From the IMG/VR virus record IMGVR_UViG_2531839585_000009: a stretch of DNA of 15,444 nt. One strand, written 5' to 3'. This document shows positions 3,149-13,852 of the stretch, piece by piece. The position numbers and the translations under genes were made by a program. Position 1 is the stretch's first letter, and every line of letters begins with the position of its first letter. Under the pieces are notes generated by a model that had not been told where the DNA came from, made no database searches, and saw nothing but the letters and a program-made list of their open reading frames with translations. The stretch comes from a virus. Lineage: Duplodnaviria > Heunggongvirae > Uroviricota > Caudoviricetes.

Positions 3149-3819
3149 TTACTGCGAAAGTTTGTTAATGGAAAGGAAGCCGCCAAAGTTGCCGACGTTA
3201 TTGCGAAACTTACAGCCCTCAGGCATTTGCTGCATTTATCCTTCGTGATATCGGACGTGGCTGGTCATATTCATCGCGACAGCCGGACCGATAACCGCAC
3301 TCTCACCGCGATAGGTCCAGGTGCAGGTGTTGGCCAGCATGATCGCCCGGAAAAACAGCCCTCCGTTTCCGTCGGGTGGAAGACAAAGAGGCACTACCGC
3401 CTCAGTTCGCTCACTGCTCATGCGCCAGCGGCTGATCACCTCCTGCTCCGGATCGGCTCTGTTTCCGTTGACGAAGTTCACCGCATCCAGAAAACGGGCG
3501 TAAACCTTACGCCGACCACCGTTCCGCCGACCAGACTCTGCATCTTCCGCCATCCCGGTGACCATCCGTCAGGTTAGAACCGTCAGTGTCGGACGGGCAG
3601 CACTGCCCTTCCGTTCAGTTCAAATCCCGTCCCCTGAATGGGGTATGCCTGATACTGCCGCCCCTGCCAGGTGACCGGCTCACCTTTTTCGTTCTGCTCA
3701 TTACAGAAAAAATAACGTTCACCACCGACCTCTGTCAGATCGATTTCCCAGAGCACCACCTGGGCTGACTGAGTAAGGCGTGTCGTCTCATGATGTGTTT
3801 CCTGTGGAATATCCTGCAT
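3149..3819 (-). pseudogene. L: Tail tip protein L (lambda gpL family, Fe-S cluster-binding cysteine motif); at least 3 frameshifts
   Basis: ATG at 3819: MQDIPQETHHETTRLTQSAQVVLWEIDLTEVGGERYFFCNEQNEKGEPVTWQGRQYQAYPIQGTGFELNG (ORF 3583..3819); then MVTGMAEDA...RKVYARFLDAVNFVNGN..ADPEQEVISRW...IMLANTCTWTYRG (ORF 3236..3565, itself drifting in and out of frame); the C-terminus DKCSKCL / EGCKFRNNVGNFGGFLSINKLSQ-stop (TAA 3149..3151) is split across two frames. Confidence 0.85.
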
Positions 3820-3828
3820 CAGGGCCTC

Positions 3829-4156
3829 CTATGCCACGACCTGTTCAAAATCTGCCGTTATGGTTACCCACAGCGCCCCCACGCTTGCCGACCATTTACG
3901 ACAAACCACCCTGATCGGCTTCCAGTCATAAGGTGGCGTCCACTGAAATGCCGGACGCCACCGTGCCGTTCCAGAAAGGCTTTCAAAGATGGGTGTCACA
4001 TTTACGAACACGTATCGTCACGCTGTAAGTCGACAACTGGTTATTCAGTCCCGCCGCACGACGCTGTTCATAACCATCGCCCAGCTTCACTGTCACCACT
4101 TTCGGCTCTGATACCACATTCATATCCGGGCGCACTTTCCAGTGAAACGTCTCCAT
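3829..4156 (-). pseudogene. M: Tail tip protein M (lambda gpM family); 2-3 frameshifts
   Basis: ATG at 4156 overlaps the H stop (TAATG). Frame 1 METFHWKVRPDMNVVSEPKVVTVKLGDGYEQRRAAGLNNQLSTYSVTIRV then stop; a second frame gives LKAFLERHGGV; a third gives AFQWTPPYDWKPIRVVCRKWSASVGALWVTITADFEQVVA-stop (ORF 3829..4011). All match lambda gpM; the span is 328 nt, not a multiple of 3. Confidence 0.8.
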
Positions 4157-7100
4157 TACCGATATGCTCCACTTAACCGACCACCATCACGGGCCTGCTG
4201 TTGCATAAAGTCCGCTGCCGCTTTTTTCCCAAGGTCATAAACCACCTTCAGGGCAGCCGGACCTATCTGCCCGTTCGTGCCATCGTTATTGATCTCGATG
4301 TTGTACTGCGGGGAAACATCGCCATACCTGACCCCAATATCCGCCACAACCCCCAGCTTACCGTCAGCACCACGACGCAGTGGCAGAATGGCTTCAGGTC
4401 CAGCTTCCCCCATCACACCCGCGCCTTTTGCAAAAGCAAAAAACGTCGGACGGTTAACCACCGTGCCACTGTAGCGACTCAAATCAGCCGACTGATAAAC
4501 ACCGCCATCAGCATTGGCTACAAAATCAAAAGGCAGCGCGGAAGCAATACCTTTTACCGCTTTCATTAAAGCTATCTGAGCCATGATTCTGGACATATCT
4601 GACAGCACAGAAGAGGTGAAGGATTTGAAATTGAGTTTGCCTGTAGTACAGAATGTCGCCAGCCAGTCACTCATGCTACTGAACGCAGACGTGAACAACT
4701 GTTCCACTGTCCCGGCTGTGTTATCCGCTTTCTCAGTGACATTCTGGAGTGCACGCAGGACTCCGTTTTTCCAGTTACCCTGCACAACTTCAAGCTGTTG
4801 CCAATAACGGCGATTCTCATTCAGTTGTCGGTTCAGGCTCTCCGTCAGCGCCTGCTCGGCCTTTCTGTAGTCATCCGTGTTATATGTCCCTTTCTGCTCA
4901 CTATCCCGCCTCAACTGCTCCAGCTGTTGCTGGTATTTCTGGCGAAGACTCAGTTGTACCTGATATCGCTGTCGCTGCTGATCACCCATACCCACCGTGG
5001 CGATATCCAGGTCATGTTGCTGACGCTGAGCGCGCTCTTCTTCAGCCAGTTGACTGGTCAGCTGAATTGTTTTTTTCTTCAGATCGTTGAGTGCCGTCTG
5101 TTTCTGAAGCTCCTGCTGTTTTACATCCAGCAGCGTCAGTGCCTGAATCAGTTCATCTTTACGGGCCAGCACACTCTTTTCATCTGCCGTCAGTTTTTTC
5201 CCGTCCAGATCGCTGATGCGCTGCTGCAGAGCCAGAAGCTGTTTATGCGCTTCTGTCATCCTTCGTGGCAATGCCTGCTGACTGTCTGCAGCAGCAATCT
5301 GTCCTTCCACCTGTGCCTGTTGCTGACTGTACTGCAGCAATAACCGGGTGGCCTCATCATTACGGGTTTCGCGTGTTTTTTTCTTACCGGATGCCAGGGC
5401 TTTCTCGTAACGTTCATTTTCACGTTGTATCGCCGCATCCCTGACAGCCTGATCGGCGTACTGCATGGCATTAATACGCGCAATTTCACGCTGATGTCGT
5501 GCTGCTTCCGTTTCATTCATCCGGTTCAGTGCAGCATTTTCAGCATTACGGCGTTTCTGTTGCTCCTGATAATTCCGCTCTGCCTGCTCTTTTGCATCCT
5601 GCAAATCCTTCTGGCGTTTTTTCTCCTGAAGCTCGTTAAGACGCTGCTGATCGTACTCAACCTGAGAAGATGATGCCGTCCAGGGGAGTCTTTTCGCCCG
5701 CGACACTTTCTCCTGTAAAGCGGCAATCTGTTCATCCAGCGAGTCTTCACGACCAATATTCATGGCCGCATCCCAGAAACGACTCCACAAATCAGACAGA
5801 TACTTCAGCGTACTGCCAAGCGCATTGAGGTTATTATCAATATCCGCAGTACGCCGACCGGTTTCCTCTGCCAGTGCAGACATGGCTATCCGTGCAGCAT
5901 CACTGGACCGCCCCTGCTCCCCAAGGACGCGTATCTGCTCAAGCTGAGTGGCAGTAAGAAAATGCAGCTCATTGTCCAGAGCCTTCGCGGCATTTACAGG
6001 ATCATCCTTCAGCCGCTTAAACTGATTTATGGTATCGCTGACCGACTGGCCAACCGATCGCTCCATCTGTGCGGCAACTCTCGCCACCATACCGATATCG
6101 TTTCCACGAAATGCACCACTCCCCACCACCTGAGCCAGCGCACCGGCTGCAGCATGTTGCGTGATACCATTCCCGGAAATAGCACGACTGAGCGTCCACA
6201 GCTGCCCGGCAGTGACTCCGGCATAATGCCCCGTCAGCGACAGCTGGCGGTTAAATTCTTCCCCCTCCTTCTGACCGTCATACCAGGCTTTACCCAGACC
6301 ATAGACAGCCGCGGCAATACCGCCAATAACCCCGCCAAGCATCATGCCTTTCGGTGACATCAATGTGTCTATCCACCCGGCACGGTTAGCCAGCGTTATT
6401 CCGGATCCCCTCAGCGCACCTAAATTGCCGCGGGCCAGTTCACCTATCAGAACGCCTATCTCCTGACGGGCCGCTGCACTTTTCAGACCCAGCGAATGCG
6501 TTGCTTTTCCTGCCTGCTCCATTTTGCGGATATACACTTCTGCAGCACTGCTTACCCCCAGCTGGGCAGCCTTAGCACGAAGCAACTCAGAAGAAGAAAG
6601 ATTCTGGCGGGTTGCCTGCTCTTTAAGCTGACGGATAAACGCCACTTTCTGTCGGGTAGCCTCTTCCTCAGCCTGTGTAAGAACACGGGTTTTCGCCGTA
6701 ACCTCAGAAATCAGCGCCAGATAATCCTGCTGACCAATCCCGCCACTGTTTCTGGCCTGTCGGATCTGCTGCTGAATACGCTGTAATTCCTGCAGCCCCG
6801 CACTGGCCTGTTTCACACTGTCAATCTGACGATAAAACGCAGCAGCCGCTTTATCCTGAGCCTCTGCCAGAGCCATGGCCTGCGCCTGTTCATCGCGCAT
6901 TTTCTGGCTCAGCGCCTCCATGCGCTGGCGGGTTTTCTCCACCTCGCGGGCCATGCGTTCATGAGCCTGTGCGTTCTTCTCCACCGTCTGCGCATGGACG
7001 GATGCGGCTGTTGCAGCCGAAGAAGCTGCCTGCGTTGTCTGCCGGGCGGCCTGAGTCTGACGCTCCATAAAACGCTGCATACGGGCAGAAGACCGTTCTG

Positions 7101-7206
7101 CATCGCTGGCTGCACCATTCAGAAGGTTTTTGATACGGGGAATTTCATTTTTAAACTCTGCCGCATCAATCCCCAAATCAATGACCAGGTTGGCTATCTG
7201 GTCCAT
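4156..7206 (-). CDS. H: Tail tape measure protein (lambda gpH family), intact, about 1016 aa
   Basis: Uninterrupted ORF. Likely start is ATG 7206 (MDQIANLVIDLGIDAAEF, compare lambda H MAEPVGDLVVDLSLDAARF) with GGAGGTG 6 nt upstream; the ORF track's upstream TTG at 7236 is less likely. Central Q/A/R/E-rich coiled-coil region; C-terminus INNDGTNGQIGPAALKVVYDLGKKAAADFMQQQARDGGRLSGAYR matches the lambda H C-terminus closely. Confidence 0.9.
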   Translation of the reverse strand: MDQIANLVIDLGIDAAEFKNEIPRIKNLLNGAASDAERSSARMQRFMERQTQAARQTTQAASSAATAASVHAQTVEKNAQAHERMAREVEKTRQRMEALSQKMRDEQAQAMALAEAQDKAAAAFYRQIDSVKQASAGLQELQRIQQQIRQARNSGGIGQQDYLALISEVTAKTRVLTQAEEEATRQKVAFIRQLKEQATRQNLSSSELLRAKAAQLGVSSAAEVYIRKMEQAGKATHSLGLKSAAARQEIGVLIGELARGNLGALRGSGITLANRAGWIDTLMSPKGMMLGGVIGGIAAAVYGLGKAWYDGQKEGEEFNRQLSLTGHYAGVTAGQLWTLSRAISGNGITQHAAAGALAQVVGSGAFRGNDIGMVARVAAQMERSVGQSVSDTINQFKRLKDDPVNAAKALDNELHFLTATQLEQIRVLGEQGRSSDAARIAMSALAEETGRRTADIDNNLNALGSTLKYLSDLWSRFWDAAMNIGREDSLDEQIAALQEKVSRAKRLPWTASSSQVEYDQQRLNELQEKKRQKDLQDAKEQAERNYQEQQKRRNAENAALNRMNETEAARHQREIARINAMQYADQAVRDAAIQRENERYEKALASGKKKTRETRNDEATRLLLQYSQQQAQVEGQIAAADSQQALPRRMTEAHKQLLALQQRISDLDGKKLTADEKSVLARKDELIQALTLLDVKQQELQKQTALNDLKKKTIQLTSQLAEEERAQRQQHDLDIATVGMGDQQRQRYQVQLSLRQKYQQQLEQLRRDSEQKGTYNTDDYRKAEQALTESLNRQLNENRRYWQQLEVVQGNWKNGVLRALQNVTEKADNTAGTVEQLFTSAFSSMSDWLATFCTTGKLNFKSFTSSVLSDMSRIMAQIALMKAVKGIASALPFDFVANADGGVYQSADLSRYSGTVVNRPTFFAFAKGAGVMGEAGPEAILPLRRGADGKLGVVADIGVRYGDVSPQYNIEINNDGTNGQIGPAALKVVYDLGKKAAADFMQQQARDGGRLSGAYR

Positions 7207-7905
7207 AACGCACACCTCCGGAAATACCTTCTCCAAGATGCATCAGTTCTTCGTCCGTTCGCTCCGGTATCCCGTTCTCTTCCGGTAAAAGGCTGAAATC
7301 AGCCACCGCAGCATCACTGCTGCCGGACACCATTCTCACGATCAATGCCTTCAGCGAGGCAAACTGCGCATCCATCCACACATCACTGAAGCTCTGCATC
7401 CGGAAATAATCGCCCCACTCACCAAGCTCAGTGGCCGACATTTCCGACAGCATCCGCCGCCAGTCTGCCCGCCGGAACTCCCGGGCAAGCCGCATGACAA
7501 ACTGCATTTCCCGCGTCAGGACTTTTCCGGCGTCAGCACCTCATGCTCCAAATCCCCGGCATTCTCAATGGCTCCCATACCGCTCAGCGACAGAACCATC
7601 TCCGCCCCCGCTCCCAGGGCATCATACGACCATGTTGTAATAACGGATGCGCAAAGCGTCTCAACATCCTGAGACTGTTCCGCATTCCACAGTGAGCGGG
7701 AAACCAGCCAGGCATTGATATCCATCCCCATCCGCAGAAAAGCAATCTGTCGTTCAGCCTCCGGCAGTTCTCCCTCTTCGGCATCAAACTTTGCCGTTCG
7801 CTGCTGAACAAACGCCAGATATTCAATTCTCTGCAGCCCGGACAGCTCACTGAGCACCACGGACTGTTTTTCATAATTAAACGTGCCCTGTTTCAGAAAC
7901 ATCAT
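7178..7905 (-). CDS. GT: Tail assembly chaperone G-T fusion, predicted to be made by programmed -1 ribosomal frameshifting near the 3' end of G
   Basis: The -1 frame relative to G opens at a TGA only about 10 codons before the G stop and continues for about 115 codons (..AGKVLTREMQFVMRLAREF...GPDSQPGH-stop at 7178); the candidate shift site GGAAAAG (7521..7527) sits 2 codons before the G stop, the same arrangement as lambda G/T. No independent strong RBS for T. Confidence 0.6.
7516..7905 (-). CDS. G: Tail assembly chaperone G (lambda gpG family)
   Basis: ATG-ATG at 7905/7902 preceded by GGTGGAG; MMFLKQGTFNYEKQSVVLSELSGLQRIEYLA resembles lambda gpG (MFLK...LSELSALQRIEHLA); ends ...LTPEKS-stop (TGA 7516..7518); position between V and H. 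Confidence 0.85.
   Translation of the reverse strand: MMFLKQGTFNYEKQSVVLSELSGLQRIEYLAFVQQRTAKFDAEEGELPEAERQIAFLRMGMDINAWLVSRSLWNAEQSQDVETLCASVITTWSYDALGAGAEMVLSLSGMGAIENAGDLEHEVLTPEKS
7521..7527 (-). other. Candidate -1 frameshift slippery heptamer GGAAAAG (one-base variant of the lambda G GGA AAG site)
   Basis: Zero-frame codons CCG GAA AAG TCC TGA; -1 frame GCC GGA AAA GTC...; A-site slip AAG to AAA is canonical, P-site re-pairing GAA to GGA is imperfect. Confidence 0.45.
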
Positions 7906-7918
7906 GTTCTCCACCTGC

Positions 7919-7942
7919 AAAAAAGCCCCGGATAACCGGGGC
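7919..7942 (-). terminator. Intrinsic (rho-independent) terminator immediately downstream of major tail protein gene V
   Basis: Minus-strand reading GCCCCGG-TTAT-CCGGGGC followed by TTTTTT: perfect 7-bp GC-rich stem, 4-nt loop, 6-U tract; lies in the 57-nt gap between the V stop (7963) and the G start (7905). Confidence 0.75.
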
Positions 7943-7962
7943 AAATGATGAGTATCGTCCTG

Positions 7963-8702
7963 TTAACCTGCGGCGCTGACAGCCACCGCAGCCACGGCCA
8001 CAAAATCGCCGTCAGAAGTCATGCCCACAATGCTGACACTGCCCTGCTTCACGCCTTTCACCGTGGCCACAAGCCCGTTCAGGGTCACCGTGGCAGTCTG
8101 TGGATCTGTCGAATGCACACTGATCGCTTTGTCACTGGCTCCGTCAGGTTTTACTGTAAAGGTCAGCGTGGTGGTTGCTCCCACTTTTACACTGGCAGAT
8201 GCCGGTGCCACCGTCAGCCCGGTAACGCCCACGGTTTCAGTGCCTTCCTCTGCCAGATACGGACGCCCCACACCGCTGATTTTCACGGTGCGGGTCATCA
8301 CGTCTTTTGAGGCAATGGTTTTACCCAGTGAACTCAGCCAGCCACGGAAAACATCAACAGTACCGTTGGGATATTTGATACGAAACGCGCAGACTTCACC
8401 GGAGTCGAACAACTGAACCAGTTTTTTCTGCCCGCTGTCACCCGGACGCCAGGCCAGCGTCGCCGAAGTATCACCGACGGATTTCTGCCCCTGGGTTGTC
8501 GTTTTCCAGTCTGCATCTTCATCATCGAGATAAGTGTCATCTTCTGCATCAGCGGTCATTTCGCCAGGTTGCAGATCCTTCACCATCGCAAGACGCACCA
8601 GTCAGTGTCCGAAAAGGGTTCGCAAACGCATCGCCTTGCCGGTTACATCCAGAACGTCGTTCCCGCACCTTTCGTTTTTGCCAGTGGATTTGGTGTGGTC
8701 AT
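7963..8702 (-). pseudogene. V: Major tail tube protein V (lambda gpV family) with C-terminal Ig-like (Big_2-type) domain; the first ~100 nt carry about 4 single-base deletions, the remaining 211 codons are intact
   Basis: ATG 8702 with AAGGAGGTG 5 nt upstream: MTTPNPLAKTKGAGTTFWM then in-frame TAA; the pieces TGK, DAFANPF, PFSDTDW and RLAMVKDLQPGEMTADAEDDTYLDDEDADW lie in alternating frames and together reconstruct the lambda gpV N-terminus. ORF 7963..8598 continues ...YPNGTVDVFRGWLSSLGK...RTVKISGVGRP... and ends with an Ig-like segment (LTVAPASASVKVGATTTLTFTVKPDGASDKAISVHSTDPQTATVT...). Confidence 0.85.
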
Positions 8703-9126: not shown

Positions 9127-9689
9127 AACCTCAGTTGTTGTTTCAGTGCATACCCCAGCTGTTTCGGCATTTCCGCAGCAATAATGCGGTCGCGGGCATC
9201 TTCAAATGCTTGTGTCAGCGGTCCGGACAGCGGGACTTTCACCACATCAATGGGGTAACGATTTTTGCCATCAATACGCCGCATCACATGCCAGCGACCA
9301 TTCGCCAGTTGCTGAATAAACGCATCCCGGAAAAGATATTTACCCACCTTCAGCACACTGCCACGGTACTGCAGTTTTCCACCACGCCGGGCCAGTCTGA
9401 CCCGGGCTGTCCCCAGCTTAATAGCGGGCAGATTGCCCCGGTTAACGCGGATCCTGGCCGTCATTTTTCCTGACGGACTGGCTTTAAACACCCGGACACG
9501 CTGACGTACCAGTTTCAGGGGGATCCCTTTCACCTGGTTATCTCCCGCAACGGTATTCCCGGCAACCTGCCGGGTGGCGACCGAGACCGCTTTCTGTGCC
9601 ACACGGTTTATCGCCCATGCGCTGGCCTGTGGCACCATACGGGTATCAAGGCTGTTCAGATTACGGATGGCATTCTCAAGCCCCTTCAT
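9111..9689 (-). CDS. Z: Tail completion protein Z (lambda gpZ-like by position and size, 192 aa)
   Basis: Intact 192-aa ORF, ATG 9689 preceded by AGAGGTG; basic, Arg-rich; sits between the FII-like gene and U exactly as lambda Z does and overlaps U by 16 nt. Identity is inferred mainly from synteny and length. Confidence 0.7.
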   Translation of the reverse strand: MKGLENAIRNLNSLDTRMVPQASAWAINRVAQKAVSVATRQVAGNTVAGDNQVKGIPLKLVRQRVRVFKASPSGKMTARIRVNRGNLPAIKLGTARVRLARRGGKLQYRGSVLKVGKYLFRDAFIQQLANGRWHVMRRIDGKNRYPIDVVKVPLSGPLTQAFEDARDRIIAAEMPKQLGYALKQQLRLWLTR

Positions 9690-10305: not shown

Positions 10306-10324
10306 CAGCCCCGTTCAGGGGCTG
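10306..10324 (-). other. Second stem-loop abutting the Shine-Dalgarno sequence of the DUF2190-like gene
   Basis: Plus-strand CAGCCCC-GTTCA-GGGGCTG (7-bp perfect stem); on the minus strand it ends 3 nt before the GGAGA RBS; no U-tract follows. Confidence 0.4.
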
Positions 10325-10335
10325 ATTTCAGGTAC

Positions 10336-10355
10336 AAAAAAAGCCCTTACGGGCC
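10336..10355 (-). terminator. Intrinsic terminator immediately downstream of the protease/capsid gene
   Basis: Minus-strand reading GGCCC-GTAA-GGGC followed by TTTTTTT: GC stem with GNRA-type tetraloop and a 7-U tract, 23 nt after the capsid stop codon (10379..10381). Confidence 0.7.
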
Positions 10356-10378: not shown

Positions 10379-12334
10379 TTACGCCGTACATTTCACCAGA
10401 CCGCGGTGATCAACTGGCGCGACACCGGCGTCAATACGCACTTTCGTTGTCACGCCATCCACACTGAAGCCCTCCATCTGATCAATATATGGCGTATCCA
10501 CACCGTTGAGATAAGCCACTTCAATCGTATCGGAGCCTTTTGACGCAGCCAGGTAGAAGGTGGTCAGGCTGTTATCATCAAGACGAGGCTCTGCAATAAC
10601 GGTCGCAAAATCTTTCACCGGGTTAATAATACCGGCGTTAATGTCAGCCCCCTTGACACTTGAGGAGCGAATGACCTGGTTAGCAACAGACTCCATCGCC
10701 GTCGGTACCAGTACGAACGCAGGACGAATATTCAGATGACGCTCCCCCTCTTTCTGAACGCGCATCAACTGGCGGGCTTTATCCAGCGATGCCACGTCCA
10801 TTGCAGCGCTCTCCAGTACGTTTGCATGTTTCGCTTTATCGAACAGACTTACATTATCTGTGGAGATTTTCGGGTTAGACGTCAGAATGGCATAAACCAG
10901 ATCGGCAATAGTGGATTTCGCCGCACGGCCCAGCTTCATCGGGACATCGGTCAGCATATTCAGATCATCATTGATAATGGCCTGACGGGTGATACTGAAC
11001 AGCTCGCCATAGGTCGCCAGTGCAATAGTGGCCTGTTTATCTCCGGTGGTGACGTATTTATATTCCGCCCCTTCACGCACCTGACGCAGAGCACTGAAGC
11101 CCCCCATACCCACACGATGGGCAATTTTAAAATCAGACAACTGACCTTTCCGCGTCCACTGTTCATAGGTTTCAGGGGCATCTTCCCAGCCCTGCAGAAT
11201 GGCTTTGTTCGCAACATCCAGCAGAATATTACCGAAGTCAGACGTACTGTGTGTGAACGCCGCACCGACCATCTGCATCGGGTTATAACTGGAAACCCCA
11301 ATACCCCGTTCAGTCAGTGACATACGGGCATATTCACGCAGGGTCATCCCGTTGTAGACATTATCACGTTCGGTTTTTTCAAATCCGGCACGCGCCATCA
11401 GCGCCTGGCGGATCCCGTCCCCCACAAAATTACCGTTACCGGCATAAATATGAGCCGGGGTATTTTTATTGGATGGCGTGGACTCGCGCCCCATCTCGTT
11501 CAACAGCTTTTCGCGGGCCTGCTCCAGCGAACATTCAGGATCGGCAAGACACTGAGCCTGCAGCGTCTGATAACGCCCGCCAAACATGGCAAACAGATCA
11601 TTAATACCGTTTACACGCGCTTTTTGCTCTGCCAGTACCTGCGCACGGATACTGTTTTCATCCACCACGGGTGCTGCTGCCTGCACTGGCGTCCGGGAAG
11701 CTGCAGGTTCATTATCCTGTACGCGTGGAGCACTGTTGCGTGGCGGAGTAATCATGTTTCGAATGGATTCCGGCATCTTTTTAAATTCCTCTGTACGTTT
11801 TGACTGAATACATGCCATTGCCTTAACGGCTGGCGTCACCTGATCAGCAAATCCCTGTGCCAGACATTCGGCACCGGACATCCAGGTCTCATCCGCCAGC
11901 ATGGCAGCAATTTCATCGGTGGTTTTCCCGGTTTTCTGTGCATAAGCGGGTAACAGAACCGCCTCAACTTATCGAGCAGGTCGGCATAGGTGCGCATGTC
12001 CTCCGCATCACCGCCCGTAAAGCCAAATGGTTTATGAATCATCATGAAGGTGTTTTCCGGCATAATGACCGGTTTCCCACCATCGCAATGACCGACGCCA
12101 TTGAGCCGCCACACCGTCGACATAAACGGTAATGGACGCACCATGTGTTTTCAGCGCATTAAAAATGGCGATGCCTTCAAAGACATCGCCACCCGGTGAA
12201 TTGATATGGAGATTAATGTGGGTGATATCGCCCAGTGCATTCAGATCACTGATAAACTGCTTCGCTGTAACCCCCCAGAAACCAATCTCGTCATAAATAT
12301 AAATATCCGCGTCACTCTGGTGACCAGCCTGCAT
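10379..12334 (-). pseudogene. Fused prohead protease (ClpP / S14-like) - linker - major capsid protein (HK97-fold); protease part broken by at least 3 single-base deletions, capsid part (507 codons, 10379..11902) intact
   Basis: Protease pieces: DIYIYDEIGFWGV...INSPGGDVFEGIAIFNALKTHGASITVYVDGVAA (ORF 12032..12439), then SMASVIAM in the third frame (catalytic Ser context), then GKPVIMPENTFMMIHKPFGFTGGDAEDMRTYADLLDKL (ORF 11836..12144; MIHxP His motif), then the capsid frame from EAVLLPAYAQKTGKTTDEIAAMLADETW onward. Putative start ATG 12334 (weak RBS, uncertain). Confidence 0.8.
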
Positions 12335-12380: not shown

Positions 12381-13852
12381 CTACTGTCGTTTCGTTGCGG
12401 CACTGCTGCCTCCTTTATCACTGGCCGGATCGGTATCAAATACTAGGTCCAGCTTGCGGTTTTCATCAATTTCGGCCTTGCGCCGACGTTTGACATCATC
12501 CGGATTACGACCACCTGCACGTACCCAGTCTGATTCTGTCGCCGCTCCACCACGAATCTGGATTTTCCAGGCCTCAGCCTCCTTAACAGGATCAATCCAC
12601 GGCATCACCGGTCCGGAATACACCGCGGTATACAGTGAAGAACGGTCAAGATCGCGGGGTAGCCTGATAACACCGGATGCCACAGCCTGTTTCAGCCAGG
12701 CACGATACATCGGGCGGGTGACGGCACCAATAAACCAGTCCTGCAGGATCAGGTAGCCATCAGTGGATTCAACCAGCTCCTGACGCTGGGCGCTGTAAGT
12801 GCCGTTATAGTTGCGCGCTGTACTGGAAAAACTCAGACGACTGCCCGCCGCCACGGCACGCAACTGACCATTACGAAAAGTTTCAAGGTTAGGATTGGGG
12901 CGATCCGACTTCACCATTCCGATTTCTTCGCCGGGTTTCAGATCGTCGTAAATAATGCCTGGCTGAATGGTAAGCTCGCGTTCCTTATCCTTGCTGCCAT
13001 TACCATCCGTTTCATAGCTCTGTCCGTCGCCTTTGCGGATGTACATCCCCAGAGCAGCGGCGACCCTTGCTGCAGTCAGCTCAGAATCTTCATACTCTTT
13101 CAGGGCGCTGAGGCGGATCAGCACACCGGACAATAAAGACGTCCCGCGCATCTGGTGCAGACGGCGAACAAATTTAAGATGCAGCATTCGCTCTGCATCC
13201 ACTTCTTTGGTTTCCATCTGCCGTCCGGATACAGGACGACTTTTATACACCAGATATTTTTCGGGACGCCCCCAGTCATCAACAAACACGCCCTGATTCA
13301 GCCTGTTGCTCTCATCACTGGTCATGGGAATAAAGTCCGGCTCGAGCGCCTCCAGCCAGAAATGAACACCGGCAGAAGGCGTCAGGCTGTTTATGCGCCC
13401 GGAAACCATCTGGGCAAACACCTCACCATCGCGCAGCCAGGTACGCAGCATCAGACGTTCCAGCATCGGACGGGTAAACTGCCCGGTGACTCCGGCTGAC
13501 AGACCATTCACTCCATCGGGTCGATCTCCGCTGCCAGATCACGGGCAATGGCCCCATTGCGTAATACCGGATGTGGCTCGACAATAATCCCGTTTTTCCC
13601 CACCACCCGTTCTTCCAGCTTGTCAAATACACCAATAACCAGATCGTGGTTGTTATCAAGGTAACGGGCCTGCTCACGTAACGACACGGCCCCGTACTGG
13701 CTTAGCTGGTCGGCAGTTCGGTTCTCCCGTCGGGCTTTGTGTGTCCGCGTCGTTTTTACGGCTTCATAAGCCTGGATCACCGCACGGGAACGCAGCCTTG
13801 CCGCTTTCCATCCAGGTGAAAAAACGCCAATCACATCATCAAGAATTGCCAT
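12381..13852 (-). pseudogene. Portal protein (lambda-type portal family); one frameshift near 13510
   Basis: ATG 13852 overlaps the W stop (TGATG), GAGG about 8 nt upstream: MAILDDVIGVFSPGWKAARLRSRAVIQAYEAVKTTRTHKARRENRTADQLSQYGAVSLREQARYLDNNHDLVIGVFDKLEERVVGKNG... runs to a stop at 13508; the remaining 376 codons (ORF 12381..13511) continue in another frame. Total span 1472 nt, not a multiple of 3. Placement between W and the protease/capsid gene and the size (about 490 aa) fit a portal. Confidence 0.8.

Follow-up and report, generated by a model that had tools for sequence, protein, structure and literature searches.

A predicted Rho-independent terminator between the tail tube gene V and the chaperone gene G in the late operon of mEp460-type lambdoid phages

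Introduction

The late genes of lambdoid phages form one transcription unit that is read by a Q-modified RNA polymerase, and this modified polymerase is generally resistant to intrinsic terminators. In 1988, Sampson et al. reportedly concluded that late-gene ratios in lambda are set mainly by translation initiation. Terminators inside such operons are said to be discussed by Juhala et al. (2000) for the phages HK97 and HK022.

For intra-operon terminators of lambdoid late operons, partial termination and the halting of non-antiterminated transcription have been proposed as speculative roles (PMC8022706). In Pseudomonas phages leaky terminators are widespread and shape expression, and a passage of the same paper cites inefficient T7 terminators that balance expression as a precedent (PMC9163698). 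The closest described site is found in the lambdoid phage mEp460, where the region between the tail tube gene V and the chaperone gene G carries the label “rho-independent terminator” (GenBank JQ182728.1, 8751–8774). Two further terminators are annotated in the same record: one follows the capsid-protease gene, and the other, which is weak, lies within T. In a literature search we found no measured 3′ ends or readthrough values for a lambdoid V–G terminator.

Here we describe the homologous site in a stretch of 15,444 nt of viral DNA (IMG/VR record IMGVR_UViG_2531839585_000009, Caudoviricetes). This whole stretch is called the window, and coordinates refer to it unless an accession or another locus is named. 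An earlier note, made from the letters of this DNA, had proposed a strong intrinsic terminator between V and G that would enrich V transcript under partial antitermination and block readthrough from upstream in a lysogen.

Results

Origin and sequence quality of the window

With 98–99% identity, the window matches the structural modules of phi458, Ayreon, cdtI and mEp460, which are lambdoid coliphages, and its long reading frames are all located on the minus strand. Judged from this similarity, it is the late structural module of a lambdoid phage of the mEp460/cdtI/phi458 type. A 501-nt segment comprising the end of V, the terminator and the start of G was found in 1843 of the 5426 complete E. 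coli genomes, nearly always as a single copy (median of one place per genome).

Alignment of the window with mEp460 yielded 94 gap openings, of which ∼88 are private deletions of 1–2 nt, and almost no insertions. These deletions are not confined to homopolymers and break V, the portal gene, the protease-capsid gene, L, J and other genes; clusters were found at ∼143–1418, 1763–2466, 3150–3610, 3951–4666, 5263–5288, 8597–8643, 11970–12104, 13491–13523 and 14447. In a sampled segment, none of the complete RefSeq E. coli genomes shared them, and the best identity was 94.4%. The deletions look like assembly or sequencing errors (from low-quality or long-read data) or like the traces of a decayed prophage copy. 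As none of them falls within 5289–8596, they spare the region from the 3′ end of V through the terminator, G and T to the start of H.

Position and sequence of the element

The features around the junction are listed below in the order in which they are read.

7963–8702, minus strand: major tail tube gene V (phrog_41, 2.8e-102; PF16461 Phage_TTP_12 plus Big_2), stop codon TAA at 7965–7963
7943–7962, minus strand: 20-nt spacer from the V stop codon to the hairpin, read from the sequence
7925–7942, minus strand: predicted terminator hairpin GCCCCGG-UUAU-CCGGGGC, seven G-C pairs, −15.0 kcal/mol
7919–7924, minus strand: U6 tract abutting the stem, predicted region of the transcript 3′ end (scan and sequence)
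7909–7915, minus strand: Shine-Dalgarno sequence GGUGGAG of G, 3 nt past the U-tract (from the sequence; GGAG conserved in the alignment)
7516–7905, minus strand: tail assembly chaperone gene G, 129 aa (PF06894 Phage_TAC_2, 1.8e-39; phrog_42; matches mEp460_011)
7178–7507, minus strand: T reading frame (PF06223 Phage_tail_T; phrog_39)
4156–7206, minus strand: tape measure gene H (phrog_24, E-value 0; mEp460_013), start predicted from mEp460

The product of V belongs to the lambda tail-tube family. Its reading frame is intact only at 7963–8598, being broken by four 1-nt deletions at ∼8597–8643, and comparison with mEp460 places the probable start at ∼8702. T lies in the −1 frame relative to G (offset 398 nt, by frame arithmetic), which fits, as expected, the conserved G/G-T product of programmed frameshifting. 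The 3′ end of G reads ...CCG GAA AAG UCC UGA. H would open a stretch of ∼10 kb with low-copy tail genes, which polymerase would have to reach through the terminator.

The intergenic gap between V and G spans exactly 7906–7962 and contains the whole element on the minus strand, which is the coding strand. The arms GCCCCGG (7942–7936) and CCGGGGC (7931–7925) enclose the loop UUAU (7935–7932), and after U6 the minus strand continues with GCA, GGUGGAG, AAC and AUGAUG, the start of G at 7905; the U-tract ends 13 nt upstream of this start. The earlier note had described a perfect GC stem of 7 bp, a loop of 4 nt and a run of six U, which is exact, and had left the strand unstated. Its placement of the element after the major tail tube gene and before the chaperone and tape measure genes is borne out by the limits of the gap and by the gene identities. 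With a spacer of 20 nt, a ribosome at the V stop codon should leave the stem uncovered.

Terminator identity and chance

The hairpin is the only perfect 7-nt inverted repeat nearby and alone makes up the centroid structure predicted for the 60-nt gap. On a d'Aubenton-Carafa-type score the V–G site reached +40.9 and the post-capsid site described below +23.2; all other sites in the window were negative. Terminator prediction had been suggested by the earlier note as a check of its proposal, and the consensus scan indeed ranks the V–G site as the top terminator-like match. A search for a bidirectional terminator gave a negative result at this site: the 5′ flank of the hairpin is CAUCAUUU, so that the tail on the plus strand reads CAAATGAT. 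On the plus strand no U-tract follows the hairpin, and the element is therefore unidirectional.

Apart from its loop the DNA is perfectly palindromic, and a chance palindrome or a protein-binding site at the DNA level could look like this. Several results speak against such an origin. When the whole window was shuffled 300 times with dinucleotides preserved and both strands searched (≥7 bp, ≥6 GC pairs, ≥6 T), an equal site was obtained in 0/300 cases. The U-tract is specific to one strand, and G-U wobbles are tolerated on the coding strand. The hairpin sequence has no second copy in the window at ≤3 mismatches, hence no REP-like repetition within it, and a search of the whole window with Rfam at gathering threshold returned zero matches. 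We therefore regard a chance palindrome or a DNA-level site as extremely improbable.

The element combines a GC-rich stem and a loop of terminator size with a 3′ U-tract, lies downstream of a stop codon, exceeds chance expectation and is conserved. The intrinsic terminator proposed by the earlier note is canonical by every sequence criterion and in sense orientation, and the homologous site is annotated in mEp460. On these grounds of sequence we take it to be a genuine Rho-independent terminator in sense orientation, situated directly after V inside what is probably a single long late operon.

Two further candidates were rejected. One was a regulatory structure in which the spacer pairs with the Shine-Dalgarno region of G, as seen in the minimum-free-energy fold; this pairing adds only ∼2 kcal/mol and is missing from the centroid. 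The second candidate was the small RNA sRNA-17, 193 nt in length, from an mEp460-like prophage of E. coli K1 (PMC7719688), considered as a V 3′ end; its sequences as given in the supplement are absent from the window and from 168 fetched loci.

Companion and other hairpins in the window

Besides the V–G site, a single terminator of the window has a positive score; it lies in the head module.

10335–10355, minus strand: companion terminator GGCCC-GUAA-GGGCU followed by U7, after the protease-capsid fusion gene (found by the scan; d'Aubenton-Carafa-type score +23.2; annotated in mEp460)

A direct look past the capsid stop codon revealed a hairpin and U-run in most of the head modules examined, including that of lambda. 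The short hairpin with U7 of this head type is conserved within the Enterobacterales, in loci from Escherichia, Klebsiella, Proteus, Providencia, Xenorhabdus and Morganella, and lambda-type capsid genes carry GGCCC-UUCG-GGGCC and a U-rich tail at the same place. Past the companion terminator and before the next gene, a further 7-bp hairpin (CAGCCCC...GGGGCUG) was seen at 10324–10306 of the minus strand.

Two other hairpins were noted on the minus strand. The first, at 1846–1827, occupies the gap that separates J, the host-specificity gene, from the counterpart of the tail assembly gene mEp460_017. It has a stem of 8 bp (AAACCGCC-UCCG-GGCGGUUU) with the U-rich tail UAUCGUUU behind it, and may be a third, weaker intra-operon hairpin. 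At 7304–7291, inside T, GGCUGAUUUCAGCC is followed by UUUU. This site is the counterpart of the annotated mEp460 terminator at 9389–9406 and is weak (score −13.7, −6.8 kcal/mol), lying within coding sequence. In phi80 an inverted repeat is annotated in the equivalent part of T.

Three states of the V–G junction

For a census of V–G junctions, 160 loci with V homologues from GTDB genomes and IMG/VR were combined with Gifsy-1, phi80, HK225, lambda, a Vibrio phage and a Klebsiella phage. The V stop and the G start were located in each locus, and 163 usable loci gave 65 distinct junction sequences (haplotypes) that fall into three states. One junction (L086) was reassigned by eye to the state with hairpin and U-tract.

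A hairpin with a U-tract was found in 27 of the 65 haplotypes, among them the whole mEp460 clade, with gaps mostly of 54–77 nt. The hairpin is conserved in 97 loci representing 26 haplotypes. At least five unrelated stems with a U-tract occur at the junction across lineages:

GCCCCGG: mEp460 clade and relatives down to 73% V identity
GGCUCC: Kluyvera, Klebsiella
AGCCCC: Ewingella
GCCACA: Providencia
GCAGCG: Serratia, Symbiopectobacterium; the hairpin overlaps the V stop codon

Apart from the GCAGCG type, these stems begin 17–23 nt past the V stop. In the second state (15/65 haplotypes) a GC hairpin is present without a U-tract; most of these gaps measure ∼35 nt, and most of the hairpins begin 4–5 nt past the V stop. 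Members are HK225 and loci from Kluyvera, Buttiauxella, Atlantibacter and Kosakonia, with the tetraloops UUCG, GUGA and GAAA. Gifsy-1 and a Citrobacter prophage, in which the mEp460-type stem is kept and the U-tract has decayed, were counted here as well. The remaining 23 haplotypes, with gaps of 3–23 nt, carry no element; lambda, phi80, the Vibrio phage K242 and many Enterobacter and Proteus prophages belong to this state. Because lambda, phi80 and many others have a V–G gap of 3–17 nt without a hairpin, the element is dispensable for the tail module.

In the hairpin-only type with stable tetraloops, a conserved hairpin different from that of the window sits immediately before the ribosome-binding site of G (L005, which is HK225, and L029, L032, L033, L036, L037, L050–L052, L054, L055 and L077). 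Instead of ending transcripts, this type of element may stabilise mRNA or act in translation. In the window, too, the GC hairpin might serve mainly as a 3′ stabiliser or processing barrier that shields V mRNA from 3′-to-5′ decay once the transcript has been cleaved or has occasionally terminated, the U-tract being an add-on. Stable tetraloops on GC hairpins without U-tract in 15 haplotypes, and the mEp460-type hairpins that outlived their U-tracts in Gifsy-1 and the Citrobacter prophage, would be in line with such a role; the annotators of HK225 wrote 'stem_loop', not terminator, and terminators have been reported to enhance the stability of upstream mRNA (in a passage of PMC11696848). However, a pure exonuclease barrier would need no U-tract, and yet 5–7 U past the stem are kept throughout the mEp460 clade and the five unrelated hairpins at this junction all have one. 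A mainly stabilising function is the chief alternative for the element of the window but, in our view, an unlikely one.

Two groups of junctions were unusual in other respects. In two Providencia prophages (L080, 3508–4863, and L081) an insert of 1.3 kb separates the post-V terminator from G. It carries a gene for a 277-aa protein with KilA-N/P63C domains and a 154-aa ORF without a Pfam match, and resembles moron-like cargo. The exact lambda V–G junction is shared by 14 loci, and those numbered L038–L049 include contigs from assemblies of unrelated organisms such as Kitasatospora, Oceanobacillus, Neobacillus, Shewanella, Leeuwenhoekiella and Chromatium. Many of these contigs are short, with a coverage of ∼1, and the lambda junctions most likely represent contamination with lambda control DNA.

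Terminator-like sites follow the capsid and tail tube genes

Across 65 non-redundant loci, which together comprise 424 kb on the coding strand, a strict terminator scan gave 49 matches. Of these, 21 start 0–60 nt past the V stop, compared with 0.46 expected for uniform positions, an enrichment of ∼45-fold, and most of the remaining matches are as far from V as the end of the capsid gene. Only two genes of these modules, those for the capsid and the tail tube, are thus followed by clusters of terminator-like sites. The recurrence at the V–G junction points to repeated selection for an element that is nonetheless dispensable.

This distribution bears on the possibility that the element is an insulator only. 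It would then have no effect on Q-modified polymerase and would stop stray, non-antiterminated transcription in the lysogen or during early infection, arising from a leak past the late-promoter terminator or from spurious internal promoters, so that the tail genes stay silent. Such insulation is one of the two roles proposed in PMC8022706, analogous fail-safe terminators of conjugative elements are described in passages of PMC8955417 and PMC11658703, and the predicted strength of the site fits efficient arrest of an unmodified polymerase. The position is odd for this purpose, though: the site would lie ∼8 kb into the operon, and on the standard map of lambdoid prophages a stray late transcript would reach it only after passing through the lysis and head genes. 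Moreover, the terminators follow the two most abundant structural genes and not module boundaries or operon starts, which dosage tuning would explain better. We consider a pure insulator improbable. For the reason given by the map, the earlier note's proposal of insulation in a lysogen also appears weaker to us than its proposal of V enrichment.

Conservation within the GCCCCGG family

Within the GCCCCGG family, the core CCCCG/CGGGG is invariant in 20 haplotypes down to 73% V protein identity, while the flanking spacer diverges completely. Across these 20 haplotypes 96.4% of the cells are paired, and one compensatory change from G-C to A-U and several G-U wobbles were observed. The U-tract is retained as 5–7 consecutive T/U directly past the stem in all haplotypes of the mEp460 clade.

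Covariation within the family is weak: the score was reached by 18 of 500 shuffles, and the counts of pairs and of pair types changed on both sides did not exceed those of the shuffles. We rejected covariation as proof of RNA structure, as there is too little divergence and only one compensatory pair. The argument for the element consequently rests on unrelated terminators recurring at the same junction.

A neutral relic, for instance the boundary of an old moron insertion at a permissive junction, is another conceivable origin. That the junction accepts insertions is evident from the two Providencia prophages with their KilA-N/P63C cargo, and in lambda and phi80 it is empty. Neutral drift is hard to reconcile, however, with a core stem that stays invariant next to a spacer that does not, with independent terminators that recur far above uniform expectation, and with the retention of the element in the 1843 E. 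coli genomes. The chances of a mere relic are accordingly very small.

Discussion

Taking the sequence and its relatives together, we favour as the probable function a leaky terminator after V that would raise the level of V mRNA, protect its 3′ end and stop unmodified polymerase. During lytic growth, Q-modified RNA polymerase would mostly read through the site, so that G, T, H and the tail-tip genes are expressed, while some polymerases would stop at ∼7919. Transcripts ending there would carry a stable 3′ hairpin that resists 3′ exonucleases. Partial stopping and 3′ protection together would leave V mRNA in excess over the mRNA of the genes further downstream (∼10 kb); of their products the phage would need far fewer copies than of the tube protein. 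Without the Q modification, polymerase would be stopped efficiently at the same site. The Q gene and the late promoter themselves are located beyond the limits of the window. The companion terminator after the capsid gene could have the same effect for the other abundant virion protein. In a consensus scan, which weak or non-canonical promoters can escape, the minus strand had zero sigma-70-like sites between the terminator (7919) and the tail genes including H; with no promoter-like site in between, these genes would depend on readthrough. Termination in vivo, its leakiness and its effect on protein ratios are what we infer from this arrangement.

Several points weigh against a leaky terminator that raises V mRNA. 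As Q-modified polymerase resists intrinsic terminators, the terminated fraction under Q could be negligible. The tail module does not require the element, given lambda, phi80 and 21 other junction types without a hairpin. The 15 junctions that have a hairpin without a U-tract argue that selection may act on the hairpin itself. The relatives in Gifsy-1 and Citrobacter, with the same hairpin and a degenerate U-tract, and the weak covariation within the family also count against this reading.

A broader and quite speculative proposal concerns the evolution of the junction. Its three states (no element, hairpin, hairpin with U-tract) may have evolved repeatedly, and in lineages with the mEp460 state, control of the stoichiometry of the tube to the chaperone and tape measure might have passed to transcript attenuation combined with 3′-end stabilisation, in place of the translation initiation used in lambda. 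Further, the terminated 3′ fragment of V mRNA with its hairpin and U6 resembles an Hfq-binding module and might act as a small RNA derived from the 3′ UTR. We regard this proposal as doubtful.

The element is real, ordinary, very widespread and previously recorded, and sister phages can do without it. Little about it is new, as it is annotated in mEp460 and its class is already in print. The two functional ideas of the earlier note coincide with the two already published (PMC8022706); they are plausible, but not original. The census adds modest value by showing a three-state, recurrently evolved junction. The site also offers a clean test case, being strong, present in a single copy and found in about one third of complete E. 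coli genomes. Natural relatives without the U-tract (Gifsy-1) or without the whole element (lambda, phi80) make it a convenient system for studying the role of intra-operon terminators.

Comparison with known systems

Among described systems, leaky terminators after abundant structural genes of lytic phages, such as the inefficient ones of T7, are alike in principle, in that partial readthrough balances abundant upstream products against downstream ones. Those systems, however, involve phage polymerases or measured readthrough, whereas for the window host polymerase and Q antitermination are assumed.

Phage L (PMC8022706) offers a further comparison. In both cases a predicted intrinsic terminator follows a structural block in a late operon, which in the window, too, would have a single promoter and antitermination of the Q type. 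Phage L is a podovirus with its site behind the procapsid module, whereas the window is from a siphovirus with the site behind the tail tube gene; both sites are predicted.

HK225 (NC_019717.1, 9532–9547; 2743–2758 in L005) shares the junction and a homologous tail module with the window and has a GC-rich hairpin of 6 bp with a tetraloop at this place. It differs in that the hairpin starts 4 nt past the stop codon, has the unrelated stem orientation CGGGGC...GCCCCG and lacks a U-tract; this stem-loop is probably not a terminator.

The V–G terminator annotated in mEp460, whose genome is 97–98% identical, is homologous to that of the window, with the same flanking genes, spacing and U6. The two differ at the loop-closing position, where mEp460 has a U that forms a G-U wobble (−12.6 kcal/mol) and the window has the commoner, all-G-C form of the stem (−15.0 kcal/mol).
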